A stretch of 64,000 nucleotides of DNA from Escherichia coli (GCF_003018255.1 NZ_CP027440.1), one strand, 5' to 3'; shown: positions 17,644-59,788, numbered from the stretch's first letter. Made by a program: numbers and translations. Notes: generated by a model from the sequence alone, not told the origin.

Positions 17644-18540
<897 letters not shown>

Positions 18541-42247: not shown

Positions 42248-42268
42248 TTTGTTGAAAAAGGATTGATA

Positions 42269-43458: not shown

Positions 43459-43473
43459 ACCTGAATTGACTAC

Positions 43474-43500
43474 AAAAAAAGCCACGGAATAAACCGTGGC
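43474..43500 (-). terminator. rho-independent terminator after allE
   Basis: hairpin gccacgg..ccgtggc with U-run on minus strand. Confidence 0.55.
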
Positions 43501-43542
43501 AAAATCCAACATAGCTAAAAATAATCAGGCGAGTGGTATGAC

Positions 43543-44326
43543 TTAAATCTCTACGTCGCGGTTGCAATCTTTCGAGTAAATATAGCTGAACGCTTCACCA
43601 CGCCCTACGCCATAACCAGCCTGTAAAGAATAAGCGCCCATAAAGATGTAATCGCCTTTTTTCACCGGGATCCAGTTATTGTCGAGGTTATAAACCCCCT
43701 GACCGGAAAGAATATAGGCACCGTGTTCCTGAACGTGGGTTTCGATATAACCGTGGCTGGCACCTGGTGCAAAAGAGAGGATATGCATGTTCATATCAAA
43801 ACCTAACTCTTTGGGCAGAAAATCCAGCAGAATAACATCGTCCATGCCTTCATAATGAATGCGTTCCAGTTCGCTGGCATTGCCAGAAACCAGCCACGGC
43901 GCATGACCTTCTACCGGAATATAGCGACGCTTATATAAAAAGATTTGGCTGTCTTCGGCCTGGGCGTTAACAAACGTCATTAAGGAGCCTGGCGGGCAAT
44001 AAAGATAGCCACCTTCACTTAAGGTAAATGTTTTCCCTTCGGCTTTGGCAGTGATATTTCCAGAGATCACATACAGGAACGTTTCAATGCCTTCGCCACC
44101 GAAGCCCTGTTGGTTGCCGCCGTTTTGATGCAGTGTGACCAGATAATCAACAAAAGAGGCACCCAGCTTTGGCGTGGAGAGGATTGTCGCGTCACAATTT
44201 TCAAAGCCCGGAATAATATTTTTTACCAGACCGTCTGGTGTTAACAGTGCGAAATTACCGTGTTTCACAATCGCACGGTTAGCCAGTAAATCTTCGCGGT
44301 AACCGGTGACGTTATTTAAATATCCC
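43543..44326 (-). pseudogene. allE: S-ureidoglycine aminohydrolase gene separated from its start codon/RBS by island insertion
   Basis: cupin ORF; in-frame upstream codons ..KGYLNNVTGYREDLLANRAIVKHG.. preceded by a stop and no ATG; matching GGAG-N8-ATGGGATAT found 14 kb away at 58513-58530. Confidence 0.75.
44320..44326. repeat. attL core (ATATCCC)
   Basis: identical 7-mer at 58513-58519; outer flanks reconstitute intact allC-allE junction. Confidence 0.6.
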
Positions 44327-44453
44327 TTTTATCAAATAGTGTTTTTTGCTGTTTCATAATGTTTCAGGTCGTTCATTATGTTTTTGATTATCAACGGATT
44401 TGCCATTTTTCTTGTTTCAGCTTGTTTCACGTTGTAGCGCTTTGTGCAACGAT

Positions 44454-44479
44454 CGGTGTAGTTAATGGTGTAGTCAATT
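44454..44479 (+). repeat. 26-bp direct repeat cggtgtagttaatggtgtagtcaatt, left copy (candidate Int arm-type site)
   Basis: perfect copy at 58414-58439; flanked by TGTTTCA-like motif clusters. Confidence 0.55.
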
Positions 44480-44500
44480 GTGATGACCGGAATCAAAATT

Positions 44501-45730
44501 ATGAGCAGAGCACTTAACAAACTGAGTGACACACAGCTAAGGAAAATCAACGGCACACCCGCCCAAAAAACAGCCTTTCTTAATGACGGTGGAAACCTGA
44601 GCGTCAGGCATTCAACCAGCGGCCTTTTAACCTGGTATTTCACATACAGGGCCGGAACGGGAAGAGGGACACAACCTGAACGCGTTAAGCTGGGAAATTA
44701 TCCCGATCTGAGCCTGAAAGCAGCCAGGGAAAAAGCCGCACAGTGTCGCGCATGGCTGGCTGAGGGGAAAAATCCACGCTATGAACTGAATTACACCATG
44801 CAGGAAGCGTTAAAGCCTGCAACGGTTGGCGATGCGCTCACCTACTGGCTTGAGTCGTACGCAAAGGAAAAGCGCACAGATTACGAATCACTGAAAAGCC
44901 GGATCAATAAAAACATAATCATCAAAATTGGTGCTATGCCGCTGGATAAATGCGAGCTACGGCACTGGCTGGCCTGTTTTGATCAGGTGGCAAAGCGAAC
45001 ACCTGTTACTGCCGGATTCTTGCTACAGACATGCAAACAGGCGCTTAAATTCTGCCGTAGGCGGCGCTATGCAATCAGCAACGTTCTGGACGATCTGAAC
45101 GTGGCGGACGTTGGGAAAAAACCGGATATAAGCGAACGTGTCTTAAGCACCAAAGAACTGGGCGAGTTATTGCAGGCGCTGGATAAAAAAATATTTTCTC
45201 CTTACTACGTCGCGTTAATCCGCCTCCTGATTGTCTTCGGAGCCAGGACGGTAGAACTGAGGTTATCGGAGATCAGCGAGTGGGATTTTACCGAAATGCT
45301 ATGGACCGTTCCGAAGGAGCACAGCAAAACGAAGGTTGCAATATTCCGGCCCATACCGGAAGCGATCCTGCCGTTCGTCACGCGGCTGGTGGAGCAGAAC
45401 AGGCACACGGGCTTATTACTGGGGGAAGTGAAACAGGAGGCTAGCGTATCGCAGTACGGCAGATTAGCGCACAGGAGGCTAAAACACCTTCAATGGTCAT
45501 TGCATGACATCCGGCGCACCTTTACAACGATGCTGAATGATTTGGGCGTGGATCCTCACGTCGTGGAGCAGCTTACAGGTCATCAGATGCCAGGGATGCA
45601 ACGAGTCTATAACCACTCCCGTTATCTCGATGCGAAACGTGATGCGCTGGATATGTGGACGGAGCGGTTAGGGATACTGGCGGGAGCACATGAAAACGTA
45701 ACCACGCTACCAGTAACCAGAATAAAATAA
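44501..45730 (+). CDS. int: tyrosine integrase (P4-like)
   Basis: P4-type N-terminal arm-binding region and C-terminal catalytic residues (..HDIRRTF.., ..RVYNHSRY..); adjacent to attL; start taken at MSRALNKL (ORF opens at 44480). Confidence 0.9.
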   Translation: MSRALNKLSDTQLRKINGTPAQKTAFLNDGGNLSVRHSTSGLLTWYFTYRAGTGRGTQPERVKLGNYPDLSLKAAREKAAQCRAWLAEGKNPRYELNYTMQEALKPATVGDALTYWLESYAKEKRTDYESLKSRINKNIIIKIGAMPLDKCELRHWLACFDQVAKRTPVTAGFLLQTCKQALKFCRRRRYAISNVLDDLNVADVGKKPDISERVLSTKELGELLQALDKKIFSPYYVALIRLLIVFGARTVELRLSEISEWDFTEMLWTVPKEHSKTKVAIFRPIPEAILPFVTRLVEQNRHTGLLLGEVKQEASVSQYGRLAHRRLKHLQWSLHDIRRTFTTMLNDLGVDPHVVEQLTGHQMPGMQRVYNHSRYLDAKRDALDMWTERLGILAGAHENVTTLPVTRIK

Positions 45731-46094
45731 TTTTTTTCGTGTTTTTTCAGTATGCGCATACTGGATAAGTGCACAGATACAACGTGAAACAATGTGCAAC
45801 AACGTGACACAATCATGAACAAGAGGCCAAAAAGAATACAGATTTATAAGTTACTGATTTTTATTGCTCAACTGGTTTTTTATACATTAGCGAATTACGC
45901 GTTAAAGCGTGCGAAAAAAGGCATAAAACAAGATTTTATGCCTTTGTATTAACATGAATTTAAATGATTTTATCCTGATTATTCCTCTTTCTGTAAACCA
46001 TACGACATCAACATTTGCCATTCACCACACTAGCGGGAACAATACGACACAATAAGACACCTGATGACTCTTTAAGAAACGAAAGGGGGCAATA

Positions 46095-46283
46095 GTGTTA
46101 AGCACTGATCGGTTTATACGTGAAAAAGAATGCGAAAAGCTAACAGGCCTTAGCCGCTCATGCCGCTACCGCCTGGAAAAGGCCGGACAATTCCCATCAC
46201 GTCGTAAACTTGGCGGGCGTTCTGTTGGCTGGTCTTTATCTGAGGTTTTGGCCTGGAAGGATAGCTGCAAGGCAGTTCACTAA
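46095..46283 (+). CDS. alpA: AlpA-family transcriptional regulator / excisionase-like
   Basis: 62 aa, GTG start after SD aaggggg; ..KLTGLSRSCRYRLEKAGQFP..LGGRSVGWSLSEVLAW.. fits AlpA/MerR-type HTH. Confidence 0.7.
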   Translation: MLSTDRFIREKECEKLTGLSRSCRYRLEKAGQFPSRRKLGGRSVGWSLSEVLAWKDSCKAVH

Positions 46284-46526
46284 AAAGACTGGCGGCACAC
46301 AGTCGCCACACATCCACTAATACAGAGATATAACTATGAAGATTGAATATGCGCCCGAACGTGGGCGGGGATTCGTTCGCCCTGGTGAAACTGAAAAACA
46401 ACAAAATTGGGGTTTTTCAGGCATAAAAAAAGCGGCCCCGATATGGAGCCGCCTTTCTGAACAATTAACCTGCTGCGCCTTATGTGTATGTGATCCCAAA
46501 CATAAGCACGGGGATGATAGCCGCTA

Positions 46527-46724
46527 TCAGGCTGGTGGGCAATTCCTGTTTTGTCCGTATTGCGCCGCCATTTTCGCTCGTTCAGAGCGCGAATATTTTT
46601 TTAGAAACTCATCAAGGACAAAAGCGCATGGTGCGAATCTTTCTGATTCATGCTCGAGCGCCATATTTTCGTGCTCTCTGTTCGTTTTTTGCGATGGTGT
46701 ATCGCTTGATTCTTTGTTGGTCAT
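46527..46724 (-). CDS. hypothetical small protein downstream of Arc-like gene
   Basis: 65 aa hydrophilic ORF, same strand as Arc-like gene. Confidence 0.2.
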   Translation of the reverse strand: MTNKESSDTPSQKTNREHENMALEHESERFAPCAFVLDEFLKKYSRSERAKMAAQYGQNRNCPPA

Positions 46725-46781
46725 TGTGTGTACCTGTAAAGCAATGCGCCGTAGTACCTCACACCACGGCGCTGATAGTTT

Positions 46782-46973
46782 TTATCCTTTGGGGTCTATG
46801 CCGCGCCGCTTTAGTTCAGTGCGCCCCAACTCTTTAAGCCAGTTGGCTAGGCTTATGCCGTCGCTCTGTGCTTCTTTGTCGAATTGCTCTTTTAGCTCTG
46901 GAGAAATTCGCATTCTGAATTGTGGGGATTGCCCGTCCCCTTTAGGGCTTTTATCGCGTTTGATTGTTGACAA
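46782..46973 (-). CDS. Arc/MetJ-type ribbon-helix-helix protein (candidate repressor), antisense to neighbouring island genes
   Basis: ..SPQFRMRISPELKEQFDKEAQSDGISLANWLKELGRTEL.. matches Arc N-terminal strand plus helices; start codon uncertain (TTG with SD aggtgg). Confidence 0.4.
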   Translation of the reverse strand: MSTIKRDKSPKGDGQSPQFRMRISPELKEQFDKEAQSDGISLANWLKELGRTELKRRGIDPKG

Positions 46974-47107
46974 GTGGCCACCTATTAAATTAGCCTTTCT
47001 ATTGTTAGGTGGCCACCTTAACACAAGAGCACTTAAAAAAGCAAAGCCCCGCAAGTGCCATTACCACTCGCAGGGCTTCTAACCAACAACGTAAACGAGG
47101 AGCCGTT

Positions 47108-47308
47108 ATGGTTGCCGTAAATCATATACCACACCTTGTACACACACAAACTGCCTTTGTGTGGCGTTTTCTGGCCCTGAGTGCCGGAGAATCTCAAATC
47201 ATCCACGTAACCGCCTGGACGGAACGCGAAGCGCGTAACCGTTGCCCGTCCGGTTGTGTTGCTGTATTTGCCGCCCGTATTCGTCAGGGGGAAACCTATG
47301 CACAATAA
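47108..47308 (+). CDS. small protein resembling Icd-like cell-division inhibitors of P4-type satellites
   Basis: 66 aa from ATG with SD aggag; ..FVWRFLALSAGESQIIHVTAWTEREARNRCP.. (recalled family resemblance). Confidence 0.4.
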   Translation: MVAVNHIPHLVHTQTAFVWRFLALSAGESQIIHVTAWTEREARNRCPSGCVAVFAARIRQGETYAQ

Positions 47309-47528
47309 AACCACACCGGACGCAGCAGAAGAAGCAATGCAAATACTGATACGTGCGCTCGTTGATGTTACCCACATGGTGGAGATTATGGAGAGAAAAT
47401 CACAGTCGGAGCACGACAAAAGAAAACTTAAAACAATAAAAATAATTGCCAAAAACTCGCTGATAAAAGTTACAGACATCCTTAATGAGGACATTAAAAG
47501 AATAAGGGAGAAAATTTGTGATGCATAA
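47298..47528 (+). CDS. hypothetical protein (island accessory)
   Basis: 76 aa, AT-rich, SD ggggga, overlaps neighbours. Confidence 0.4.
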   Translation: MHNKTTPDAAEEAMQILIRALVDVTHMVEIMERKSQSEHDKRKLKTIKIIAKNSLIKVTDILNEDIKRIREKICDA

Positions 47529-47748
47529 AATCCCTTTTGAAGTATTAATCCACTCTGAAAACGCATTAATTAAAGCACGCGAAATGAATGCGTTGTTAAT
47601 TAAATTAATTGAAGTGCCGGAAGGTGGTGAGGAATCAGGTGTATTAATGTTTGCAGCCATTCAGACATTACTATCGCCTGTTATTGATGAACTGGATAAG
47701 GCAATGGCAATTCACGAAAATAATAACGCGCCCCACACCGGAGAATAA
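47518..47748 (+). CDS. hypothetical protein (island accessory)
   Basis: 76 aa, AT-rich, start overlaps previous stop. Confidence 0.4.
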   Translation: MMHKIPFEVLIHSENALIKAREMNALLIKLIEVPEGGEESGVLMFAAIQTLLSPVIDELDKAMAIHENNNAPHTGE

Positions 47749-47753
47749 AAATA

Positions 47754-48053
47754 ATGAAACTTAAATATTCTGGCTTAACTGCCAGTGGCAAAACTCGCAC
47801 TAAATTCATGCGCGGTGATATTTACCGCGACCAGTACGGCGGCACGGTAATGATTAAGGGCGTGGAGGAACGGCGCGTAACTTACCGCCGTGAAGGTTAC
47901 GAATATGATTGCGTGATGCCCGTTTATCAGTTCGACCGTGATTTTTCTCTGGTGCAGGCAGCGCAACGCAGCAAGCCCACCAGCAGGGAGAAAGCACGCG
48001 CCAATATTCAGGAAATAAAAAAGATGCTTAACGTATTCAGGGGTAAAAAATGA
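47754..48053 (+). CDS. hypothetical protein (island accessory)
   Basis: 99 aa basic protein, stop overlaps primase start. Confidence 0.4.
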   Translation: MKLKYSGLTASGKTRTKFMRGDIYRDQYGGTVMIKGVEERRVTYRREGYEYDCVMPVYQFDRDFSLVQAAQRSKPTSREKARANIQEIKKMLNVFRGKK

Positions 48054-49804
48054 AACTGGCACCGAACGTAAAACAGCAGTCACGCGGCATAAAACACAAA
48101 GAAACAGAAGTCATTATTTTTGCGGGTAGTGATGCCTGGTCACACGCAAAACAATGGCAGGAACATGACGCGCGTATGGCCGGAGATAATGAGCCTCCTG
48201 TGTGGCTTGGGGAGCAGCAGTTATCAGAACTGGATAAGCTGCAAATTGTGCCGGAAGGCAGAAAATCCGTGCGCATATTCAGGGCCGGATATCTTGCACC
48301 AGTAATGATAAAGGCGATTGGTCAAAAGCTGGCGGCGGCTGGTGTACAGGATGCAAATTTTTATCCTGAGGGTATGCACGGCAAGGAGGTGCAGAACTGG
48401 CGCGAATACCTGGCCCGTGAACGCCAGAATCTTTCTGATGGTCTGGTCATTGAGCTTCCGGTAAAGCAAAAGGCGCAACTTTCGCAGATGGCGGACAGTG
48501 AGCGCGCGCAGCTGCTTGCCGATCGCTTTGATGGCGTTTGCGTACATCCTGAAAGTGAAATTGTTCACGTATGGCGCGGCGGGGTATGGTGTCCGGTCAG
48601 CACAATGGAACTTAGCCGCGAAATGGTGGCGATCTATTCAGAGCACAGGGCCACTTTCAGCAAGCGCGTAATCAATAACGCCGTGGAAGCGTTAAAAGTT
48701 ATTGCCGAACCAATGGGCGAGCCGTCCGGCGATTTGCTGCCGTTCGCCAATGGTGCGCTTGACCTGAAAACGGGGGAATTTTCCCCGCACACGCCGGAGA
48801 ACTGGATCACCACGCACAACGGCATTGAGTACACGCCACCAGCACCAGGGGAGAATATCCGCGACAACGCGCCAAACTTTCATAAATGGCTTGAGCACGC
48901 AGCCGGAAAAGACCCGCGCAAGATGATGCGTATATGTGCCGCGCTGTACATGATTATGGCGAACCGGTACGACTGGCAGATGTTTATTGAGGCCACCGGA
49001 GACGGCGGGAGCGGTAAAAGTACATTCACACACATAGCCAGCCTTCTGGCAGGGAAACAGAACACGGTAAGCGCTGAAATGACATCGCTTGATGATGCTG
49101 GTGGACGTGCGCAGGTTGTCGGGAGTCGTCTTATCGTCCTGGCTGACCAGCCGAAATATACAGGCGAAGGAACGGGCATCAAGAAAATCACGGGCGGCGA
49201 CCCCGTGGAAATTAACCCGAAATATGAGAAGCGTTTTACGGCGGTAATCAGGGCGGTGGTGCTGGCTACCAACAATAACCCGATGATATTCACCGAACGG
49301 GCCGGAGGTGTGTCACGTCGTCGCGTAATTTTCCGTTTCGACAATATCGTCAGTGAGGCCGAAAAAGACAGGGAGCTACCGGAAAAGATTGCGGCTGAAA
49401 TCCCTGTCATTATCCGCCGATTGCTGGCGAACTTTACCGACCCTGAGAAGGCACGGGCTTTACTACTGGAACAGCGTGACGGTGATGAAGCTCTGGCAAT
49501 AAAGCAACAGACGGATCCGGTTATTGAGTTTTGCCAGTTCCTGAATTTTCTGGAGGAAGCACGCGGCCTGATGATGGGCGGCGGTGGCGATTCAGTGAAG
49601 TACACGACCAGGAACAGCCTTTACCGCGTCTATCTGGCGTTTATGGCATACGCAGGCAGGAGCAAACCGCTAAACGTGGCTGAGTTCAGCAAGGCCATGA
49701 AGCCAGCGGCGAAAGTTTACGGGCATGAATATATTACGCGAAAAGTTAAGGGAGTAACGCAGACCAACGCAATTACAACAGACGATTGCGACGCGTTTTT
49801 ATAA
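48050..49804 (+). CDS. primase-helicase replication protein (P4 alpha-like C-terminal NTPase)
   Basis: 584 aa, Walker A GDGGSGKST, Walker B-like LIVLAD. Confidence 0.85.
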   Translation: MKLAPNVKQQSRGIKHKETEVIIFAGSDAWSHAKQWQEHDARMAGDNEPPVWLGEQQLSELDKLQIVPEGRKSVRIFRAGYLAPVMIKAIGQKLAAAGVQDANFYPEGMHGKEVQNWREYLARERQNLSDGLVIELPVKQKAQLSQMADSERAQLLADRFDGVCVHPESEIVHVWRGGVWCPVSTMELSREMVAIYSEHRATFSKRVINNAVEALKVIAEPMGEPSGDLLPFANGALDLKTGEFSPHTPENWITTHNGIEYTPPAPGENIRDNAPNFHKWLEHAAGKDPRKMMRICAALYMIMANRYDWQMFIEATGDGGSGKSTFTHIASLLAGKQNTVSAEMTSLDDAGGRAQVVGSRLIVLADQPKYTGEGTGIKKITGGDPVEINPKYEKRFTAVIRAVVLATNNNPMIFTERAGGVSRRRVIFRFDNIVSEAEKDRELPEKIAAEIPVIIRRLLANFTDPEKARALLLEQRDGDEALAIKQQTDPVIEFCQFLNFLEEARGLMMGGGGDSVKYTTRNSLYRVYLAFMAYAGRSKPLNVAEFSKAMKPAAKVYGHEYITRKVKGVTQTNAITTDDCDAFL

Positions 49805-49809
49805 TTTTT

Positions 49810-50050
49810 TGTAAAAGCCCTCTACCCCATCTACCTGAATGAAGTAAACGCATATTATTCAACATGATAAGTGGGTAGAGGGCTAGGTAGAAGGCTAATA
49901 AAAGCTCTCTACCCCTTCTACCTGATTTTATCAGTTTCAGGTAGCAGGGTAGACGGCAGGTAGAGGAGCCCAAAAAGCTATCTACCCGCTGAAAGCCGCG
50001 CCATTACTGACATGATGAGCATTCGGGTAGATGGGTAGAGGGGGGGGAGG
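49810..50050. repeat. iteron cluster, putative island origin of replication
   Basis: at least 10 copies of GGTAGA/TCTACC-containing units in both orientations, e.g. cctctaccccatctacctga, ctctctaccccttctacctga, gggtagatgggtagaggg. Confidence 0.6.
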
Positions 50051-50082
50051 CACAACTAAAAACTTTTTAAACGAGGGGGGGG
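50040..50082 (+). repeat. two G8 homopolymer tracts just upstream of ORF 50090
   Basis: G8 at 50040-50047 and 50075-50082, the second 7 nt before the ATG. Confidence 0.4.
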
Positions 50083-50089
50083 AAAATAA

Positions 50090-50404
50090 ATGCGCATACA
50101 TCAAAATCACTTAACAAATATGCCAGCCGAAAACATGAATCAGGGGCGACAAATGACCAAAATTCGCAGAGACAGAACACAGGCAAAATATAAAGCGTTA
50201 GACATGACAGAGCTTTCCTTAAAGGTGGCAATCAAAGCGATAGACCACCACACACGGGCAGGATACGCGAAGGAACATCCCGACCTGATAAGCGCATTCA
50301 TGACCACGGCGGCGGCAAACTTTGCCACGTTGACAGAACGTGAGATTGCCGAAGCGGAACAGGTAACAACCATCAACGTTAAAACCGGAGAGGTGGAATC
50401 ATGA
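50090..50404 (+). CDS. hypothetical protein (island accessory)
   Basis: 104 aa ORF, stop overlaps SSB-like start. Confidence 0.35.
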   Translation: MRIHQNHLTNMPAENMNQGRQMTKIRRDRTQAKYKALDMTELSLKVAIKAIDHHTRAGYAKEHPDLISAFMTTAAANFATLTEREIAEAEQVTTINVKTGEVES

Positions 50405-50811
50405 CAGCACAGATAGCCGCTTACGGGCGGCTGGTGGACGACCCGCAGGTAAAACAGACCAGCAAGGGCACACCGATGACGCTGGTTCGTATGGCGGTAT
50501 CGCTGCCATGCAGCCAGGCACATGACGGACAGGCGACGTTATGGTTATCGGTTATCGCATTTGGCAAACAGGCCGATTTCCTGGCTAAACATCAAAAAGG
50601 CGATGTTGCCAGCGTATCCGGCACGATGCAGGTAAGCCAGTGGACCGGACAGAACGGGGAAACGCGGCGGGGGTATCAGGTTATTGCAGACAGCGTAATC
50701 AGTGCCCGCGCGGCACGTCCAGGCGGGAACAGACGCAAAACCACAGGCACACAGGGTAATCAGCCACCAGCGGGAGGCGATGACCCTTACGGTGACGGTA
50801 TTCCGTTCTGA
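50401..50811 (+). CDS. SSB-like single-stranded DNA-binding protein
   Basis: 136 aa, OB-fold-like N-terminus, Gly-rich linker, acidic tail ..DDPYGDGIPF like SSB DDDIPF. Confidence 0.55.
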   Translation: MTAQIAAYGRLVDDPQVKQTSKGTPMTLVRMAVSLPCSQAHDGQATLWLSVIAFGKQADFLAKHQKGDVASVSGTMQVSQWTGQNGETRRGYQVIADSVISARAARPGGNRRKTTGTQGNQPPAGGDDPYGDGIPF

Positions 50812-50821
50812 GGGGGTGACG

Positions 50822-51070
50822 ATGGTACATGACCGCATAGCGGAGGAACTCGAGGCAAAAGGCTTTTACCGGAGGGCGTCGGCGCGATGGGGTGAAGTCA
50901 TGCAACTGGTGGAGACAGACAAGGAACGGCATCAGGTTACGATGCGACGGCTGGAATGTTCCAGGAAGGCACAGAGGCCACCGGAGCCGCCAACGGAGAA
51001 CTACGCAGACCTGAGAAATGCAGTAAATCGCACTTACGCAGACATGGGGCTGAGCAAATTAGCAGAGTAG
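50822..51070 (+). CDS. PerC-family-like transcriptional regulator
   Basis: 82 aa from internal ATG with SD gaggggg; ..LEAKGFYRRASARWGEVM..TDKERHQVTMRRLEC.. (recalled PerC-like pattern). Confidence 0.4.
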   Translation: MVHDRIAEELEAKGFYRRASARWGEVMQLVETDKERHQVTMRRLECSRKAQRPPEPPTENYADLRNAVNRTYADMGLSKLAE

Positions 51071-51141
51071 GAATATCAGAACCACACCACGCAGCCGGAG
51101 CAATCCGGCTTTTTGTTATTTTTTGTAAATTATTTGTTCGT

Positions 51142-51158
51142 GGTTGTTCCACGTTGTT
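51142..51158 (+). promoter_or_regulatory. copy of TTGTT(C/T)CACGTTGT motif upstream of capsid operon
   Basis: gttgttccacgttgttcac; similar motifs near 44423, 45782 (inverted) and 58385. Confidence 0.35.
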
Positions 51159-51374
51159 CACTGAGCGGATCGGCATATTTTACCCGAACTGAATCATGAT
51201 TATTCTCGCCCGTGGTGCCAGGACGCTGGGGCCACTTTCCCGCCTGTTAATGTGCTCGCCAATATTCATTACCAGGCGGGAAAACGATCGGTGCGATTGC
51301 TGATTTCCTTATGAAAAACGGTTGAGTGTTTGCCGCGTCCTGGAGTTCCTTACTTAACCCCAGGACTTTTTTTT

Positions 51375-52532
51375 ATGCCGAGAATAATCGAATTACGCCA
51401 GCAGAAAACCGCCATTAAAAATCAGATGCGCGACATGCTGGAGAACGCTGAAAAAGAAAACCGCAGTCTTAACGATGCTGAGGGCGCAAAATTTGACGAA
51501 TTACGCGCTAAAGCTGAATCCCTCGATAAAGACATTTCCCGCCTTGAAGCCATTGCAGACGAAGAGCGCAGCAAGCCAGGTAAAAGCAGCCAGACCACTG
51601 ACCCCGCAGAACTACGCAGCTACATTCTGACAGGTGAAACCCGCGCATTAAGTACAGGCGTTCCCGCTGATGGTGGTTATACCGTTATCCCCGAACTGAA
51701 CACCGAAATCATGCGAATGCTGGCGGATGAATCCACCATGCGCCGCATCTGTACCGTGAAAAAAATCAGCAGCAACGAGTTTAAGCAGCTTGTTTCCGCT
51801 GGCGGTGCGACCGTTAACCACGGTGAAGAGGGTAAGGCACGCGAACAGACCAGCACCCCGCAGATTAACGAGGTGAGCATTAAGCTGTATCCGGTCTATG
51901 CGTACCCGCGCACCACACAGGAAATCGTGGATTTTTCCGATGTGGACATCCTTTCATGGCTGACGGGTGAGATTGGCGACACCTTCACGGAAACCGAAGA
52001 AAGCGATCTGGTTGTGGGCGACGGTGACAAAAAAGCAAAAGGTTTTTTATCCGTACCCCGTGCAGAGAAGAACGACAAAGAGCGTGATTTTGGTACGTTG
52101 CAGGTAATTAAACCTTCCGAATCTCTGGCGTGGACATCTGCGGACCCGCTGATCGACCTGAAATTTGCATTACGTAAAAAATACCGCAAAAACGCGGTCT
52201 GGGTGGTTAACTCCACGACGGCGGCAAAACTCCAGAAGGTGAAGAACGCGAACGGTGATTACATCTGGCGTGACCGTTTACAGGCGGGTGATCCTGATAC
52301 GTTGCTGGGCCTTCCGGTCGAATATCTGGAGTTTATGCCTGATAACGTTATTGCCCTGGGTGACTTCAAACGCGGTTACTACATTGTTGATCACGAAACA
52401 GGTGTTCGCACCAGACCGGACAACCTCACAGAGCCGGGCTTCATCAAAATTTTCACGCAGAAATATTTAGGCGGTGGCGTGGTGGATTCGAACGCGATCA
52501 AGATTCTGGAACTGCCACAGGACGACGATTAA
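51375..52532 (+). CDS. major capsid protein, HK97 fold, coiled-coil N-terminal delta domain
   Basis: coiled-coil N-terminus then HK97-like capsid core; start taken at MPRIIELRQQK. Confidence 0.85.
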   Translation: MPRIIELRQQKTAIKNQMRDMLENAEKENRSLNDAEGAKFDELRAKAESLDKDISRLEAIADEERSKPGKSSQTTDPAELRSYILTGETRALSTGVPADGGYTVIPELNTEIMRMLADESTMRRICTVKKISSNEFKQLVSAGGATVNHGEEGKAREQTSTPQINEVSIKLYPVYAYPRTTQEIVDFSDVDILSWLTGEIGDTFTETEESDLVVGDGDKKAKGFLSVPRAEKNDKERDFGTLQVIKPSESLAWTSADPLIDLKFALRKKYRKNAVWVVNSTTAAKLQKVKNANGDYIWRDRLQAGDPDTLLGLPVEYLEFMPDNVIALGDFKRGYYIVDHETGVRTRPDNLTEPGFIKIFTQKYLGGGVVDSNAIKILELPQDDD

Positions 52533-52571
52533 CAGCATACAGAAGGGGCTTAAAAGCCCCTTTAGTGTTTT

Positions 52572-53144
52572 ATGGGTGAAAAAATTATGAAGAGTATGGA
52601 AATCCGGTCATCGGAAATCACCACCAGCGGAGCCGGTACGCTGACGGGCTACGTTGTTCGCTGGGATAAGCTTTCAGAACTGTTATGGGGTGAGTTTTAC
52701 GAAAAATTCCAGCGGGGGGCGTTTACTGAATGGCTTGCGGCGGGTAATGACGTTCGCGGCCTGTATGAGCATGACCACAGCATGTTACTGGGGCGCACCC
52801 GTTCCGGCACGCTGAAACTGGAAGAGGACGAAACAGGGTTACGCTTTGAACTGACCCCACCGGATACCAGTACAGGGCGCGACGTTATCGAACTGGTTAA
52901 GCGTGGGGACATCTCGGGGATGAGCTTTGGCTTTCGCTCCCGTAAGGATGTATGGGATACCACAACAGATCCATGCGTGCGCACCGTGCTGGTGGCGGAA
53001 CTGTACGAAATTACCGTTACATCGGTACCGGCTTACCCCGATTCCGGCGTGGAGCTGGCCCGCCGTTCCCTGTATGAGCAGCACCCCGAAAAAATGCCGC
53101 GTGCGGATAATCGCCGCTGGTGGGTGGATTTAGCGGGGGTGTGA
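52572..53144 (+). CDS. prohead protease (HK97 gp4 family)
   Basis: 190 aa, ..LYEHDHSMLLGRT.. and ..ISGMSFGF.. Confidence 0.8.
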   Translation: MGEKIMKSMEIRSSEITTSGAGTLTGYVVRWDKLSELLWGEFYEKFQRGAFTEWLAAGNDVRGLYEHDHSMLLGRTRSGTLKLEEDETGLRFELTPPDTSTGRDVIELVKRGDISGMSFGFRSRKDVWDTTTDPCVRTVLVAELYEITVTSVPAYPDSGVELARRSLYEQHPEKMPRADNRRWWVDLAGV

Positions 53145-53145
53145 T

Positions 53146-54357
53146 ATGTGGCCTTTCAGAAGAAAAAAAGAGCAGCGCAGCATGACGCTTGATAAGTTTA
53201 TGGCGCTGGCTGGCACATCGAACACGGGGGCGGGTGAGTACGTATCATCGGGGACAGCGGAATCACTGCCCGCCGTCATGAACGCCGTGACGGTCATCTC
53301 TGAGGCGGTGGCTACCATGCCGTGTTACCTGTACCTGGTACGCAATGAGAAGGGGAAGGAGGCCCGCGAGTGGCTTGATTCTCATCCGGTCGATCACATC
53401 CTCAACGAGCGCCCGAACGCGTGGCAGACTCCCTACCAGTTTAAGCGAATGATGATCCGCCACTGCCTGTTAAACGGTAATGCTTATGCGGTGATTCAGT
53501 GGGGGCGTGATGGTTTTCCGGTGGCTTTACATCCTTACCCGCCGCAGTCGGTGAACGTGGAGCAGACAGGTGATCATAACTGGCGCTACTGCATCACTGA
53601 CGCCTACACCGGAAACACCCGCAACTATTTACCGTGGGAGGTTCTCCACCTTCGTTACTCCACGGATGACGGTTTTATGGGGCGCTCACCTGTAACCATC
53701 TGCCGCGAATCGCTGGGGCTTGGGCTGGCCCAACAACGCCACGGCGCGAGCGTGATGCGTGATGGCATGATGGCGGCAGGGGTTATCACGTCAGGCGAAT
53801 GGCTGGACGGCGTGAAGGGCAAACAGGCATTAGCCGCACTGGAACGCTACAAAGGGGCCAGAAACGCCGGAAAAACGCCCATCCTTGAAGGGGGGATGAG
53901 CTATCAGCAGCTGGGCATGAGTAATCAGGATGCCGAATGGCTGGCCTCCCGTCGCTTCACCATTGAAGACATCGCCCGAATGTTCAACGTCTCGCCGATT
54001 TTTTTGCAGGAATACAGCAACAGCACCTACAGCAACTTCAGCGAGGCAAGCCGCGCATTTCTCACCATGACGATGCGCCCGTGGCTGGCGAACTTTGAGC
54101 AGCAGATAAAAAACGCCCTGCTGGTGGCCTCGCCTGTACCTGGTATCCGGTATCAGGTGGAGTTTGACAGCGCGGACCTGTTACGGGCCACACCTGGCGA
54201 ACGCTTTGCCACCTATGAACGCGGCATCAAATCCGGCGTTATGTGCCCGAACGAAGCCCGCGAACGTGAAGGGCTGTCCCCGCGTGATGGTGGTGATGAG
54301 TTCAGCCAGGCATGGAAACAGGAAGTAAAAATCAGCGAGGGAGAAAAACCGGAATGA
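53146..54357 (+). CDS. portal protein (HK97 family)
   Basis: 403 aa, follows protease, precedes head-completion genes. Confidence 0.8.
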   Translation: MWPFRRKKEQRSMTLDKFMALAGTSNTGAGEYVSSGTAESLPAVMNAVTVISEAVATMPCYLYLVRNEKGKEAREWLDSHPVDHILNERPNAWQTPYQFKRMMIRHCLLNGNAYAVIQWGRDGFPVALHPYPPQSVNVEQTGDHNWRYCITDAYTGNTRNYLPWEVLHLRYSTDDGFMGRSPVTICRESLGLGLAQQRHGASVMRDGMMAAGVITSGEWLDGVKGKQALAALERYKGARNAGKTPILEGGMSYQQLGMSNQDAEWLASRRFTIEDIARMFNVSPIFLQEYSNSTYSNFSEASRAFLTMTMRPWLANFEQQIKNALLVASPVPGIRYQVEFDSADLLRATPGERFATYERGIKSGVMCPNEAREREGLSPRDGGDEFSQAWKQEVKISEGEKPE

Positions 54358-54692
54358 ACATAGGGCGACTGCGTGACAGGATAACGATTCAGACCCTGAA
54401 ACAGACCAGGGATATAACCGGCGAAATACTCGAAACGTGGGAGGACGGTCACACACTCTGGGCAAGCGTGAACATGGTCAGCAGCAAGGAGGCCATTTCA
54501 TCGGGCGCAGAGCTGGCGATTGGTACCGTAAGGATCTGGATACGGTACCGGAAGGACATCAACGCCACCTGCCGGATAAAGGTCAGTACGGGGCCGCTGG
54601 CGGGGCGTGTACTGAATATCATCGGGCAGCCGCTGCCGGATGCCGCCAGGACACGCCTTGAAATTCTTTGTCGTGAGGGCGCGGAAAAATGA
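54354..54692 (+). CDS. head-tail adaptor / head closure protein
   Basis: start MNIGRLRDRITIQ overlaps portal stop; ..IWIRYR.DI.. pattern. Confidence 0.65.
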   Translation: MNIGRLRDRITIQTLKQTRDITGEILETWEDGHTLWASVNMVSSKEAISSGAELAIGTVRIWIRYRKDINATCRIKVSTGPLAGRVLNIIGQPLPDAARTRLEILCREGAEK

Positions 54693-54985
54693 CAGAAGAA
54701 CTTATCACCCTGGAAGAAGTGAAACTCCATTGCCGCATCGATGGCGACGATGAAGACCAGTTAATCAGCGGATACATTGCCGCATCGCTTGAGGCGTGCC
54801 AGATACACATAGGCAGGCGCTTTGATGACGGGCTGGAGTTCACGCCAGCCATAAAGATTGGCTGCATGATGTTTATCGCTCACCTGTATGAAAATCGCCA
54901 GATTGTCGCGGATAACGCAAAAACACGCGTACCCATGACGATAGGCGCACTCTGGACGGCTTACCGTGATGTGGGGGTGTACTGA
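54689..54985 (+). CDS. gp6-like head-tail connector protein
   Basis: 98 aa; ..ITLEEVKLHCRIDGDDEDQLISGYIAAS.. Confidence 0.65.
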   Translation: MTEELITLEEVKLHCRIDGDDEDQLISGYIAASLEACQIHIGRRFDDGLEFTPAIKIGCMMFIAHLYENRQIVADNAKTRVPMTIGALWTAYRDVGVY

Positions 54986-55425
54986 TGCCGTGGCAACCAT
55001 TAAGACGATGCACAGAACCAGGCTGTAACAGGCGCGTTAAATCCGGCAAGTGTGAGGAGCACAGGCGGGCGGCATGGCGTGCAGAGGATGCCAGACGAGG
55101 ACACCGCCGCGCGCGTGGATATTCCAGACAGTGGGACAAATACCGCGCCATGTATCTGAGTAAAAACCCGTTATGCGTGCGATGCCTTGAGAAGGGGATA
55201 TATACGCCCGCCGTGGTGGTGGATCACATTATCCCGATTAATGGCGGTGATGATGTTCTCTTCTGGCCCGAATGGAACCATCAACCATTGTGCCAGGCGT
55301 GTCATAACCAGAAAACGAAATGGCTTGATCCGGCAACAAAAAGCAAGCGTGCCGCAGGTGGATTTCGTGAAGAGGAAGAACGGGCTGCTAACCGCAATAA
55401 CTGGATGTATGACGCTGATGAATGA
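54985..55425 (+). CDS. HNH endonuclease (packaging-associated)
   Basis: Cys-rich zinc motifs and ..VVDHIIPINGG..NHQPLCQACHNQKT.. HNH core, next to terminase. Confidence 0.85.
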   Translation: MPWQPLRRCTEPGCNRRVKSGKCEEHRRAAWRAEDARRGHRRARGYSRQWDKYRAMYLSKNPLCVRCLEKGIYTPAVVVDHIIPINGGDDVLFWPEWNHQPLCQACHNQKTKWLDPATKSKRAAGGFREEEERAANRNNWMYDADE

Positions 55426-55591
55426 GCGGGAACAAAACCGCCTTATCCGTGGACTTATAAGGCAGCGTGACGCATGGAAGACACAGGAAACAGGGCATAA
55501 AGATAAAGCGTCAGGACGCGCAGAACGCATCACAGCGAAGCGATTAACCGACCGTGACCGCGAGGTTATGGAATGTTTCCGCAATCGCTGA
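55409..55591 (+). CDS. possible small ORF overlapping HNH 3' end
   Basis: 60 aa basic peptide (MTLMNEREQNRLIRGL...), no recognisable domain. Confidence 0.2.
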   Translation: MTLMNEREQNRLIRGLIRQRDAWKTQETGHKDKASGRAERITAKRLTDRDREVMECFRNR

Positions 55592-55713
55592 TGAGGCTGT
55601 ATGACGGGGTGGGGGGCGTTTTCAGGACAAACCCGACCCCGCCGGGCACCGAACGCCTCCTCAAATTTTTATGCACGGGAATTTTTTGAAAAATAATCTG
55701 GCGAAAAATAAGC

Positions 55714-56070
55714 ATGGCAAGACCACCGAAAGCCCCCGCCTACCTGGATGATATCGCCGTGAAGCAGTGGCGGGAAAAATCTAGGCAGCTTGCGGAACGG
55801 GGAGACCTGACCCCCGCCGACTGGAGCAATCTGGAACTGTATTGTGTCAACTACTCCATTTACCGGAAAGCCGTTGCAGACCTTGCGGCGCGCGGGTTCA
55901 GCATTGTTAACAGTCAGGGCGGCGAGAGCAGAAACCCCGCATTAAGCGCAAAATCCGACGCTGAAAGAGTGATGATAAAAATGGCCTCTTTGCTCGGTTT
56001 TGACCCGATAAGCCGCCGTAAAAATCCACCGGAAACAGAAGAAGAGGACGAGCTTGACCGCCTGGAATAA
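55714..56070 (+). CDS. terminase small subunit (P27-like)
   Basis: 118 aa; ..DLTPADWSNLELYCVNYSIY..LLGFDPISRRK.. fits P27-family TerS. Confidence 0.7.
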   Translation: MARPPKAPAYLDDIAVKQWREKSRQLAERGDLTPADWSNLELYCVNYSIYRKAVADLAARGFSIVNSQGGESRNPALSAKSDAERVMIKMASLLGFDPISRRKNPPETEEEDELDRLE

Positions 56071-57715
56071 GTACGCAGAAGACGTAAAAACGGGCAAAAT
56101 TCCGGCCTGTAAACGGCTGAAACAGGCCGTTAAACGGTACTTTTCGGACCTTGAAAGCCCCCTTTACACGTTCGATCGTGAGGTTGTGGAGCGGTTTATT
56201 GCCTTTTCCAGGGTGTGCCCGCACGTAAAAGGGCCGATGCGTGGCAGACCCATTGAGCTGGAGCCGTGGCAGCAGTTCGCCTTTGCGTGCATCCTCGGCT
56301 TTAAGGTTAAGGCCACCGGACGGCGCAAATACACGAGCGCCTTTATCGAAGTGCCGCGCAAAAATGCGAAATCCACGACCGCCGCGATTCTGGCTAACTG
56401 GTTTCTGATTATGGAGAACGGGCAGCAGGATATTTACACCGCAGCGGTGAGCCGTGACCAGGCGCGGATCGTTTTTGATGATGCGCGTCAGATGTGCCTT
56501 TTATCCCGACCGTTACGCAGGCGGGTGAATATTCAGGCCCACAAGGTGATGCACCCGAAAAGCAACAGCCTGTTAAAGCCGCTGGCAGCAAAAGCGGCAA
56601 CCATCGAGGGAACAAACCCCAGCCTTTCCATCGTGGACGAATACCACCTACACCCCGATAACGGCGTTTATTCCGCGCTTGAGCTGGGGATGGGCGCACG
56701 TCCCGAAGGGCTGTTATTTGCCATTACCACATCGGGCAGTAACGTCGTTTCAACCTGTAAACAGCACTATGATTATTGCTGCCAGATCCTGGACGGCGAA
56801 GAGGTCAACGATTCAATTTTTGTGCTGATTTACGAGCTGGACGACGAAAACGAGGTTGATGATCCGGCGATGTGGATAAAGGCTAACCCTAACATCGATG
56901 TTTCCGTGGATCGTGAAAAACTGGCCTCAACCATCCAGAAAGCGCGGGGTATTCCGTCGCAATGGGTGGAGATGATGACAAAGCGATTTAATATCTGGTG
57001 CCAGGGGGCTACCCCGTGGATGGGTAACGGCGCATGGGCTGAGTGTGCCGGAACGTTCACGGAGGAAGATTTACACGGGCAGGAGTGTTACGCGGGGCTG
57101 GACTTATCATCAACCAGCGATATTTCCAGCGTGTGCTATGCCTTTCCGGTCGGTAAAAATATCATGCTGGTTTCCCGTCATTATCTGCCGGAGTTCCAGC
57201 TACAGAACCCCGCCAATAAAAACCGCGCTGTCTATCGCCAGTGGGCTAAAGCGGGCTGGATACGCACAACGCCAGGTGACTGCATTGATTACGACCGGAT
57301 CAGAGATGACATCATGCAGGATGCGGAGAAATTTAATATCAGGCTGGTGGGCTTTGATACGTGGAACGCCACGCATCTCAGGACGCAATTACAGGGGGCT
57401 GGTTTTGAGGTGGAGCCGTTCCCGCAAACCTACCTCAGATTCAGTCCGGCGGCGAAATCGTTCGAAGTTTTTGTTAACCGCAGGGTGATTGTGCATCGTG
57501 GCGATCCGGTGTTGTCCTGGTCGATGAGTAACGTCGTGATGCAGAGTGACGCGAACGCCAATATCAAGCCGAACAAGAAAAAATCACCGAACAAGATAGA
57601 CCCGAGCGTAGCGGCGCTGATGGCGTTTGGTACATTCCAGGCAGAGCATGAGGATTTTGCTTTTGATATAAGCGACAGCCACCGCCAGAAACTGGAAGAA
57701 TTTAGCGGGGTGTAA
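56054..57715 (+). CDS. terminase large subunit
   Basis: 553 aa, ATPase N-terminus and nuclease C-terminus, overlaps terS. Confidence 0.9.
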   Translation: MTAWNKYAEDVKTGKIPACKRLKQAVKRYFSDLESPLYTFDREVVERFIAFSRVCPHVKGPMRGRPIELEPWQQFAFACILGFKVKATGRRKYTSAFIEVPRKNAKSTTAAILANWFLIMENGQQDIYTAAVSRDQARIVFDDARQMCLLSRPLRRRVNIQAHKVMHPKSNSLLKPLAAKAATIEGTNPSLSIVDEYHLHPDNGVYSALELGMGARPEGLLFAITTSGSNVVSTCKQHYDYCCQILDGEEVNDSIFVLIYELDDENEVDDPAMWIKANPNIDVSVDREKLASTIQKARGIPSQWVEMMTKRFNIWCQGATPWMGNGAWAECAGTFTEEDLHGQECYAGLDLSSTSDISSVCYAFPVGKNIMLVSRHYLPEFQLQNPANKNRAVYRQWAKAGWIRTTPGDCIDYDRIRDDIMQDAEKFNIRLVGFDTWNATHLRTQLQGAGFEVEPFPQTYLRFSPAAKSFEVFVNRRVIVHRGDPVLSWSMSNVVMQSDANANIKPNKKKSPNKIDPSVAALMAFGTFQAEHEDFAFDISDSHRQKLEEFSGV

Positions 57716-57728
57716 TGAGGTCAGCAGC

Positions 57729-58010
57729 ATGACAGAAGCCGAAATACTGCGATTAATCCGCCGCGTCTCTGGAATCAGCCAGCAGGCTGACGAACAGACC
57801 ACGCAGCCGGACAGCGTGACAGCCGAAAATTATGCGCGTGTTGTTGCTGAGGTGATGCGCCGTGATGGTATCCAGCTTAATGATGCGGATATGCGCGACA
57901 TACGGATCCGCGTTCTTGAAATGCTGGCCTACAATCGCCGTGTAGAGATGTACAGGGAGAAAGAGAAAATTACGTACAACTGGAAGAAGCCGGAGCGGTT
58001 ACGGCGGTAA
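57729..58010 (+). CDS. hypothetical protein, last gene of island
   Basis: 93 aa ORF right after terL. Confidence 0.35.
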   Translation: MTEAEILRLIRRVSGISQQADEQTTQPDSVTAENYARVVAEVMRRDGIQLNDADMRDIRIRVLEMLAYNRRVEMYREKEKITYNWKKPERLRR

Positions 58011-58413
58011 CGTGTTGATTTAAAGGCGGCTCAATTTTGAGCCTCGTAACTGGTTGATATTTCCGGCAACCTCAATTTGAGGAGAGCGGAAACATCATCC
58101 CTCACATTCTGAATGGTCATAATGACCACGCAGGCCATCGAGGCAACCATAGCGATCATCGTTACGGTTGGAGCTTTCCGCCATTGGTGGAAAAGGTGCA
58201 CATCTGGATCATCATTACGGTGATCAAGGGTATGTAAAACCCACCAGCCTGATTAAAGGTTAACCGGAAAAAAAATCCGGTAGCCCCGTTATGGGGATCC
58301 CCATATCGACATTAACGCCCCTCATGAATTGGTGCGCTTCCCCCTGGAAAGATTACCCGCCTGTATATTTCTTGTGTCTATTTGTTCCACGTTGTTTCAT
58401 ACAGTGCACCGAA

Positions 58414-58439
58414 CGGTGTAGTTAATGGTGTAGTCAATT
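58414..58439 (+). repeat. 26-bp direct repeat, right copy (candidate Int arm-type site)
   Basis: identical to 44454-44479. Confidence 0.55.
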
Positions 58440-58512
58440 TGCGATTTTTGGCACTTTTTGTAGTGCGGGTTATTTAATTAAATCAATGTGTTATTGAAAA
58501 TAAGTTATAGAT

Positions 58513-58519
58513 ATATCCC
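58513..58519. repeat. attR core (ATATCCC) carrying native allE RBS and ATG
   Basis: minus strand reads TAA(allC stop)-GGAG-N8-ATG GGA TAT then island sequence. Confidence 0.6.
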
Positions 58520-58531
58520 ATTTATAACTCC

Positions 58532-59767
58532 TTATTTCTGCCAGGCAAGTTGATAAAGCATGAGTGCCAACGTTTTGACCCCTTCGGCAAGGTCGGTAAT
58601 ATTGGTGCGTTCCGCCGGGTTATGGCTGATCCCGTTGATGCTGGGAATGAAAATCATGCAGGTCGGCACGCGAGGCGCGAAAATTTGCGCGTCGTGCCCG
58701 GCACCACTGTGCATTACCCGGTAGTTCTGTTTTTCACTTTCACACAATTCTGTCAGGGTGGCGACCAGCTCCTTATTCATCGGCACGGGTTCTTCGTCCA
58801 TCCATAAATCGATATCAATACCAATGTCCATTTCATCGCAAATCGCCCGCATGTCGTTTTCTAACTGCTGGGTGAAATCGCGCAGCACGGCAGCGTCGGT
58901 ATGACGACAATCAATGGTGAACGTGGTTTTACCCGGTACCACATTCACCGTATTCGGACGCGGCTCCACCTTGCCAAAGGTAAGCACCAGCGGGTCGCCC
59001 ATCTTTTTCGCTTTTTCGATCGACTGATGGCAAATGCGACTGAAAGCGTAAACCGTATCACGACGATAACCCATCGGCGTGGTGCCTGCATGGTTTGATT
59101 CGCCGTTCAGCGTCACCGTATAACGACGCTGCCCGACAATTGCATTCACCACGCCAATTGACTGCCCATTACTTTCCAGCACACAGCCCTGTTCGATATG
59201 CAGTTCGACAAAGGCTTTAATATCCTGACGCGGAGTTAGTGGGGCGTTCGGCAGAGTAAATCCGCAAGCCTTCATCGCATCGACAAAACTATTTCCTTTG
59301 GCATCACAGATATTCCGCACGTCGTCAGGATTCGCCAGCCCAAAGATATTTTTACTGCCCCAGAAGACATACGGGAAGCGGCTGCCTTCTTCTTCTGCCA
59401 TCGCCACCACTTCGACCGTACGTAACGGCGCGCCGTATTGCGTTTTCAGCCAGTCAATTGCCAGCCACGCCGCCAGCGCACCGAATTGCCCGTCGAGGTT
59501 ACCGCCGTTAACCACGGTATCGATATGCGAACCGCTCAGAACCACTTCCTGTGGATATTCGGTGCCACTCAGGCGACCGTATAAATTCCCCACTTCATCG
59601 AAACGTGTTTCCAGCCCGCTTGCTGCCATTCTTTTTTTAAACTGCTGCTGAGTTTCCAGCCATTCCGGCGAATAAAGTAAACGGGTCATCCCACCCGCTG
59701 GGTCAGCGCCAAAAGAGGAAAGCCAGGGCAGCGTTTCTTCTATGGCTTGACGGAAATGTGTAATCAT
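58532..59767 (-). CDS. allC: allantoate amidohydrolase
   Basis: M20-family peptidase-like; start moved to MITHFRQ giving 411 aa. Confidence 0.9.
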   Translation of the reverse strand: MITHFRQAIEETLPWLSSFGADPAGGMTRLLYSPEWLETQQQFKKRMAASGLETRFDEVGNLYGRLSGTEYPQEVVLSGSHIDTVVNGGNLDGQFGALAAWLAIDWLKTQYGAPLRTVEVVAMAEEEGSRFPYVFWGSKNIFGLANPDDVRNICDAKGNSFVDAMKACGFTLPNAPLTPRQDIKAFVELHIEQGCVLESNGQSIGVVNAIVGQRRYTVTLNGESNHAGTTPMGYRRDTVYAFSRICHQSIEKAKKMGDPLVLTFGKVEPRPNTVNVVPGKTTFTIDCRHTDAAVLRDFTQQLENDMRAICDEMDIGIDIDLWMDEEPVPMNKELVATLTELCESEKQNYRVMHSGAGHDAQIFAPRVPTCMIFIPSINGISHNPAERTNITDLAEGVKTLALMLYQLAWQK

Positions 59768-59788
59768 AAGAAAGTCCTGTCTCAATAA

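Follow-up and report, generated by a model that had tools for sequence, protein, structure and literature searches.

A stretch of 64,000 nt of the Escherichia coli chromosome (NZ_CP027440.1, assembly GCF_003018255.1; one strand, hereafter the window, with coordinates counted from its first base) carries an insertion in the allDCE operon of the allantoin cluster, between allC and allE, which are separated by 10 bp in K-12 and by 14.2 kb in the window. The question raised by this locus is what kind of element occupies the gap and whether it is still complete. From its sequence, the inserted DNA is concluded, with a probability of about 90%, to be a capsid-forming phage-inducible chromosomal island (cf-PICI) that belongs to the EcCIEDL933 lineage and is integrated and apparently intact. 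The original prediction, made by reading the sequence, had placed a tail-less island of this class at 44320-58519, about 14.2 kb, in the allantoin operon, and these coordinates proved to begin at the attL core and to end at the attR core. The element is already known in kind, as a close sibling of the characterized EcCIEDL933, the cf-PICI prototype of E. coli O157:H7 EDL933, located between roxA and phoQ (NZ_CP008957.1, approximately 1,680,100-1,695,600).

The boundaries were set by aligning both junctions with the empty site of K-12. The crossover core ATATCCC (7 bp) is duplicated at 44320-44326 (attL) and 58513-58519 (attR). Because matches to E. coli genomes with the empty site end at 44332 and matches to related islands begin at 44327, the element proper was taken as 44327-58519, a length of 14,193 bp. 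The short reads are ATATCCCATTTAT for attB, ATATCCCTTTTAT for attL (44320-44332), and ATATCCCATTTAT for attR (58513-58525), and the longer reads are GACGTTATTTAAATATCCCATTTATGACTCC for attB, ...TTTAAATATCCC/TTTTATCAAATAG for attL, and ...ATAGATATATCCC/ATTTATAACTCC for attR. A 75 nt direct repeat (80% identical) is present about 90-130 bp inward from each end, and its two copies correspond to the P' and P arms of attP (Table 1). The tandem GGTGTAGTYAAT pair and the phased repeats of the P' arm are probably integrase arm-type sites, and by analogy the arm repeats would flank the core in the excised circle in the manner of P and P' arm sites.

The genes expected from the original prediction, a P4-type integrase, AlpA, a primase-helicase, and a head and packaging set, were all found at full length by PHROGs, NCBIfam, and Pfam. 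The three collections agree on every one of these genes, and within the head and packaging set, from the major capsid protein (MCP) to the large terminase TerL, the PHROG E-values range from 1e-35 to 1e-179. Identity to EcCIEDL933 is very high for MCP (382/385 residues), portal (399/403), TerL (543/553), the small terminase TerS (100%), the HNH endonuclease (99.3%), the head-tail adaptor (99%), the prohead protease (97.4%), and the head closure protein (96%). The MCP also matches PDB 9GYI in 382 of 385 residues, the three substitutions being those that set it apart from the EDL933 protein, which agrees with the published T=4 capsid (47.5 nm) of EcCIEDL933. All the core genes are of full length and equal in length to those of EcCIEDL933, the functional prototype, and therefore none is frameshifted; the concern that the head genes might be frameshifted remnants was thereby removed. 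The small open reading frame (ORF) of 60 aa between the HNH gene and terS was related to EcCIEDL933 gene 1792 by counting genes forward from 1786 as MCP; loss of gene 1792 severely reduces the transfer of EcCIEDL933. By analogy with the order HNH-cos-terS in HK97, cos probably lies in the 123 bp gap that separates this ORF from terS.

The head and packaging proteins are of HK97-type families, and the likeness to HK97 extends over the HK97-fold capsid and prohead protease, the portal, the gp6-like adaptor, and an HNH-assisted TerS/TerL machine using cos sites. A degraded HK97-like prophage, from which tail, lysis, and immunity genes have been deleted, would carry such proteins as well. When 30 ORFs on both strands were compared with PHROGs, however, no tail, baseplate, holin, or endolysin family was detected, and no tail or lysis gene lies beside the element, which is bordered by allE/glxK and allC/allD; the absence of these functions from the element had been predicted. 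A tail module, a lysis cassette, and CI/Cro-type immunity genes, as expected of an HK97-like prophage, are missing inside and beside the element. In addition, the att boundaries are clean with host genes immediately outside, and regulation and replication are of PICI type, with AlpA and a P4-type pri-rep in place of CI/Cro-type immunity genes. Among 5,426 complete E. coli genomes, 1,713 carry some part of the element and 233 carry at least 80% of it, and the same tail-less gene set and order are kept in these 233 genomes, at no fewer than three attB sites (those seen among the relatives being allE, tqsA, and roxA/phoQ). Comparison of the packaging module with 50,697 phage records gave six matches at 65-71% nucleotide identity, and no phage record carries this module above about 70%. 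The order of head genes in HK97 is portal-protease-capsid, the reverse of the capsid-protease-portal order of the element. The gene order was regarded as atypical for HK97-like phages in the original prediction, but it is no oddity of this element, since it is the same in EcCIEDL933 and in every relative compared. These observations altogether make a prophage remnant highly improbable.

The assignment to cf-PICI was examined against the SatelliteFinder model of this class, which holds 11 core components and forbids tails and holins (PMC10085698); the survey made with SatelliteFinder found 969 cfPICI in all and recorded such elements in 13% of Enterobacteriaceae genomes (PMC10085698). All 11 components are present in the element, corresponding to 'Type A', the forbidden components being judged by PHROGs rather than by SatelliteFinder's own profiles. 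The size of 14,193 bp fits a small T=4 capsid and is far below that of a phage. The prediction of a cf-PICI is therefore upheld by the complete set of model components together with packaging proteins 96-100% identical to those of EcCIEDL933. The other satellite type to be weighed is one that remodels helper capsids, either a classical PICI or a P4-like satellite. The left half of the element (int, alpA, pri-rep, ori) is indeed shared with classical E. coli PICIs of the EcCICFT073 type, for which AlpA-dependent, helper-triggered induction and PerC-family cargo are further points of likeness, and it is shared distantly with P4, the likeness to P4 being limited to integrase architecture, an AlpA/Vis-type regulator, and the C-terminal family of the primase. 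The classical islands, however, use helper capsids by way of Rpp and the helper terminase, whereas the element in the window has its own capsid protein, portal, connectors, HNH, TerS, and TerL. The PICI model forbids portal, head-tail connector, and adaptor (PMC10085698), and all of these, together with TerL, were detected. As to P4, the element has its own capsid set, and among the 30 ORFs there was no PHROG match to capsid-size-redirecting proteins or to sid/psu/delta/epsilon-type functions, no P4-specific profile having been run. Remodelling of helper capsids is thus the least probable of the explanations considered here, and the cf-PICI assignment is kept in what follows.

Whole-element comparison with published cf-PICIs, one of the checks proposed with the original prediction, aligned 84% of the element with EcCIEDL933 at 94.5% nucleotide identity, rising to 97.3% over the 6.9 kb packaging module (51092-58019). 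The gene order is identical, the attP arms are nearly identical, and TTGTNNCA repeats are found at the same four positions. EcCIEDL933 differs in its attB, roxA/phoQ instead of the allE start, through a swapped attP core segment about 25 bp long; in its pri-rep C-terminus and iterons, which are DUF927 and TAACCCGCA as against D5_N/DUF5906 and GGTAGA in the window; and in its length, 15.4-15.5 kb as against 14.2 kb, because an ORF of 225 bp that precedes the capsid gene in EcCIEDL933, and part of the right-end sequence, are missing from the element in the window. The best whole-element match among the 5,426 genomes is the tqsA island of OkiPb01677 (NZ_AP042483.1), at 96.1% identity over 97% of the query in the genome search and at 95.8% over 98% in the comparison of islands, and a second tqsA island, that of O55:H7 USDA5905 (NZ_CP039837.1), covers 95% at 93.9% identity. 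The tqsA islands carry the pri-rep allele and the GGTAGA iterons of the window, but differ in an attP core of ...ATAACAGCA, hence the splitting of tqsA, and in arm repeats that read GGTGTAGTCACT. A cf-PICI of E200086 (NZ_CM128605.1) lies at the same allE/allC site and is alike in attB, core, arm sites, and overall architecture; its cargo is divergent (MCP 74%, portal 80%, pri-rep 56%), its iterons are GGTGAACAG, it has an extra ProQ/FinO gene, and no separate head closure gene is annotated. From these comparisons, the parts that differ from EcCIEDL933 (the core specificity of the integrase, the C-terminal two-thirds of pri-rep with the iterons, and a few small ORFs) are common to other E. coli cf-PICIs, and the element is a mosaic. 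Its packaging module and AlpA are of EcCIEDL933 type, its pri-rep/ori allele recurs in tqsA islands, and the attP core of its integrase targets the allE start. Among the best matches to phage records are three of satellite size (LR881103.1, 16.5 kb; OR544139.1, 15.3 kb; OR544138.1, 10.7 kb), probably cf-PICIs deposited as phages. As cf-PICIs were described in 2022 (Alqurainy et al.), hundreds have been catalogued, and the capsid structure has been solved, the value of the present locus lies mainly in its correct annotation.

The replication module is the part most unlike the prototype. The match of pri-rep to the P4-family primase C-terminal region TIGR01613 is 109.1 bits against a cutoff of 108.7, the DUF5906 domain is taken as an SF3-type helicase core, and no separate primase catalytic domain was detected by Pfam in the N-terminal 150 aa. 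The protein has no more than its first 163 aa in common with the pri-rep of EcCIEDL933 (81% identical), whereas identity is 98.3% to the allele of the O55:H7 island, 90.6% to that of OkiPb01677, and 56% to that of E200086. An iteron origin had been predicted, and this was confirmed: the window holds 26 GGTAGA sites, of which 11 are gathered in 49821-50039, within the 285 bp directly 3' of pri-rep. The iteron regions compared were 49812-50045 of the window, 24870-25158 of the E200086 locus (L003), and 9170-9541 of the EcCIEDL933 locus (L007). In islands that share this Rep allele, GGTAGA is repeated 10-11 times in the same place, whereas E200086 carries GGTGAACAG and EcCIEDL933, with its DUF927-type Rep, carries TAACCCGCA. 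This switching of the iterons with the initiator indicates that the array is a real origin, cognate to Rep.

The integrase is of P4-type architecture, with an arm DNA-binding domain and a catalytic domain by Pfam, and is 92% identical to Int of EcCIEDL933, 95% to that of E200086 at the same site, and 88-89% to those of the tqsA islands. The attP regions were compared over 44290-44480 and 58340-58540 of the window, 3090-3331 and 18436-18640 of the roxA/phoQ locus (L007), and 3960-4178 and 19064-19260 of a tqsA locus (L001). Among the three integrase lineages, of the allE, roxA/phoQ, and tqsA sites (88-95% identical to Int of the window), the attP arms are nearly identical, and about 25 bp adjoining the crossover is replaced in each, every version mimicking its own attB. 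The swapped cores look like retargeting by core replacement. The element and its relatives form a clean natural series, of three integrases with the same arms and swapped cores, and of three Rep alleles each with its own iterons. The identical integrase occurs in many draft assemblies, mostly adjoining glxK-allE, and at a second E. coli site it is found, together with an identical P' arm, beside TRAP transporter genes near rplI (GCA_029205885.1, ABLAAK010000005.1; positions 2750-3000 of locus L008); at least two attB sites are therefore used by one integrase. On its chromosomal side the TRAP/rplI site reads ...ATAGATATATCCC, and it agrees with attP over a longer stretch than the allE site does.

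Integration directly affects allE. Its start codon (44326-44328, minus strand) lies within attB, and base 44327 is A in attB and T in attL, so that ATG is changed to AAG upon integration, the P' arm supplying T for A. Loss of normal allE expression is predictable from an island at this position; the allE gene is called by PGAP (NCBI) at 744 nt in E200086, where the site is occupied, as against 786 nt in K-12. Excision at ATATCCC would give back the ATG of allE. Whether the insertion serves as a reversible switch on allantoin catabolism, in which excision recreates allDCE and carriage or loss of the island toggles anaerobic use of allantoin, as in the 'active lysogeny' switches of phages, may be asked, but such a role is unlikely. 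This attL junction is found in 12 of the 5,426 complete E. coli genomes, so use of this attB is rare, and the locus documents a rarely occupied attB overlapping the start codon of allE. In the full-text literature, no paper was found linking PICIs to allE/ylbA/allC, the six published cf-PICI sites being tabulated as images only. No tRNA or tmRNA was detected by ARAGORN anywhere in the window, and therefore the island is not a tRNA-targeting one.

A phased 10 bp repeat, TTGTNNCANNTTGT, is common to the ends of the element and to two of its intergenic regions. It occurs seven times in the window, with all seven copies inside the island and 0.19 expected by chance, at four loci: 44412-44435 and 58382-58395 in the att arms, 45779-45812 in the int-alpA gap, and 51144-51157 upstream of the capsid gene. 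EcCIEDL933 and the tqsA islands carry its core, CACGTTGT, at these four relative positions as well. The repeat may be an AlpA/Vis-type operator coupling excision, AlpA autoactivation, and expression of the capsid operon, and this candidate operator is directly testable in the EcCIEDL933 system. A possibly new mechanism of helper sensing or interference, which the original prediction had raised in view of the uncharacterized accessory genes, received no support: AlpA is 98.4% identical to that of EcCIEDL933, all of the accessory ORFs have copies of 84-100% identity in other E. coli cf-PICIs, and PADLOC gave no credible match. The PADLOC search covered pri-rep, a plus-strand ORF of 248 aa, and eight of the small accessory ORFs, ten in all; its only two matches were at chance level (E about 0.003), and there is therefore no evidence of defence cargo.

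How such an element would behave can be drawn from EcCIEDL933, to which it is nearly identical and in which the individual steps have been demonstrated experimentally; what is observed in the window is the presence and intactness of the parts. Induction of EcCIEDL933 has been shown with the helpers HK106 and HK446, and helper titres are not lowered (10.1101/2022.09.08.507074). EcCIEDL933 makes its own small capsids, packages itself only, and needs only tails from a phage (10.1101/2022.09.08.507074; 10.1101/2025.02.11.637232); the capsid is of T=4 and 47.5 nm (10.1101/2025.02.11.637232). In PICIs, alpA is induced by the helper independently of SOS, and AlpA activates its own expression (PMC6092414; PMC11773190). 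For the element in the window, the 98% identity of AlpA and the conserved int-alpA region point to helper- and AlpA-dependent induction, and the 96-100% identity of the packaging proteins points to packaging of its own DNA only, in its own capsids. A lytic helper siphophage (of the HK106/HK446 type for the prototype) would thus switch on alpA without SOS, and AlpA would activate itself and the island and, together with Int, excise it at ATATCCC. Pri-rep would then fire the GGTAGA iteron origin with the assistance of the island's own single-stranded DNA-binding protein (SSB), and the capsid operon would supply the island's own capsid protein, protease, and portal for the assembly of T=4 procapsids, about 47 nm in size. 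The TerS/TerL/HNH machine would package island DNA only, by a cos-type mechanism, and head closure protein and adaptor would finish tail-less heads, which would become infectious after joining phage tails, possibly tails from different species. Cell lysis would depend on the phage, the island being without lysis genes. With 96-99% identity to EcCIEDL933 in AlpA, adaptor, and head closure protein, the element is expected to respond to similar inducers and to be compatible with tails of the HK106 type. The particle would differ from that of HK97, for which T=7 stands against the T=4 (47.5 nm) expected for the element by homology to EcCIEDL933.

Several observations weigh against a functional island. 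The cos site was not located in the element; sigma-70 promoter and terminator scans gave no enrichment over shuffles and were not used for operon definition; no candidate helper prophage is visible within the 64 kb window; the pri-rep C-terminus and the origin are unlike those of the prototype, so replication competence would rest on the likeness to other islands; and excision, replication, and particle formation by this copy are predictions. A rival explanation is that the element, a cf-PICI by descent, is an immobile, decaying copy fixed in the chromosome, for example through a mismatch of Rep and origin or a fault in att or cos. Its make-up as a mosaic of modules from different islands, and the single base next to the core by which attL and attR differ, speak for such decay. 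On the other hand, the core ORFs are all complete, each as long as in the functional prototype, and the Rep allele adjoins the iteron set that accompanies the same allele in two other islands. The attP arms are intact on both sides and differ little from the arms of EcCIEDL933, and the one-base difference between attL and attR is the expected product of recombination between attP (T) and attB (A). Furthermore, the occurrence of the identical integrase in many draft assemblies and at two attB sites implies recent mobility. Decay of this copy is accordingly judged very unlikely, and an apparently intact cf-PICI is the assignment under which the features are collected in Table 1.

Table 1. Features of the island and of its flanks in the window
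Position	Strand	Feature	Family match or remark
42263-43414		glxK	left flank
ends 43543	-	allE	left flank
44405-44479	+	P' arm of attP	phased TTGTNNCA repeats 44412-44435; tandem GGTGTAGTYAAT x2 at 44455-44478
44501-45730	+	tyrosine integrase, 409 aa	phrog_1, E 5e-76; Pfam Arm-DNA-bind_3, Phage_integrase
45779-45812	-	three phased TTGTNNCA repeats, int-alpA intergenic	candidate AlpA operator
46095-46283	+	alpA, 62 aa; master activator/excisionase-type regulator	PF05930, E 5.6e-18
46527-46724	-	small ORF, 65 aa	phrog_21027
46782-47054	-	YlcI/YnfO-like ORF (Arc-like ribbon-helix-helix)	start probably internal
47108-47308	+	Icd-like small protein, 66 aa	phrog_29966, phrog_1743
47298-47528, 47521-47748	+	two small hypothetical ORFs	97% identical to OkiPb01677 island copies
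47754-48053	+	DUF4222 protein	95% identical to EcCIEDL933
48050-49804	+	pri-rep, 584 aa	TIGR01613, D5_N, DUF5906, Pox_D5
49812-50045		replication origin	11 GGTAGA iterons, both orientations, around AT-rich stretch
50153-50404	+	hypothetical protein, 83 aa	phrog_1231
50401-50811	+	SSB	97.8% identical to EcCIEDL933
50822-51070	+	PerC-family regulator	
51131-51168	+	TTGTTCCACGTTGT repeat upstream of capsid operon, 3' of terminator-like hairpin	candidate AlpA operator
51375-52532	+	HK97-fold MCP, 385 aa	TIGR01554, 290 bits; phrog_10
52572-53144	+	HK97-family prohead protease	phrog_80
53146-54357	+	portal, 403 aa	phrog_12
54354-54692	+	head closure protein (Hc1/gp16 of SPP1 type)	phrog_25
54689-54985	+	head-tail adaptor (Ad1, gp6-like)	phrog_40
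54985-55425	+	HNH endonuclease of packaging machine	phrog_144
55409-55591	+	60 aa ORF between HNH and terS	putative homologue of EcCIEDL933 gene 1792
55714-56070	+	TerS, small terminase, P27 family	phrog_83
56054-57715	+	TerL, large terminase, 553 aa	phrog_9
57729-58010	+	conserved hypothetical protein, 93 aa	phrog_1561
58365-58439	+	P arm of attP	TTGTTCCACGTTGT repeat and GGTGTAGTYAAT x2
58532-59785	-	allC	right flank; stop codon 58532-58534
59789-60838	-	allD	right flank
from 61155		fdrA	right flank

Among the accessory ORFs, the YlcI/YnfO-like ORF is 95.6% identical to the matching region of EcCIEDL933, and its homologue in another locus compared (L009) carries PF13132. The 248 aa plus-strand ORF at 46336-47082, which corresponds to a protein annotated in EDL933, was rejected as probably spurious, for neither PHROGs nor PADLOC gave a match to it, and two ORFs on the minus strand that do match PHROGs lie across it. 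In the neighbouring segment 47099-47308, PHROG matches were obtained on both strands (phrog_29966/1743 on the plus strand and phrog_4106 on the minus strand), and the families of one strand probably originate from miscalled ORFs.

Around the capsid gene, a terminator-like hairpin lies 3' of perC (51093-51110), a 17 nt inverted repeat, 94% complementary and with 14 nt between its arms, is found upstream of the capsid gene (51236-51283), and a strong hairpin with a T-run is located directly 3' of the same gene (52542-52563). Regulation or attenuation of the packaging operon is a possible role for these structures.

Outside the island, positions 1-25000 of the window consist of core E. coli genes (fsr, ushA, copA ... 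ybbP), at 99.3% identity in the best-matching genomes, and an RHS element core protein is among the annotated features of this segment. With Rfam at gathering thresholds, no family was detected inside the island, and the matches to small RNAs in the window, STnc480 at 43470-43536 in the glxK-allE gap and sroB at 3986-4069, are ordinary enterobacterial features.

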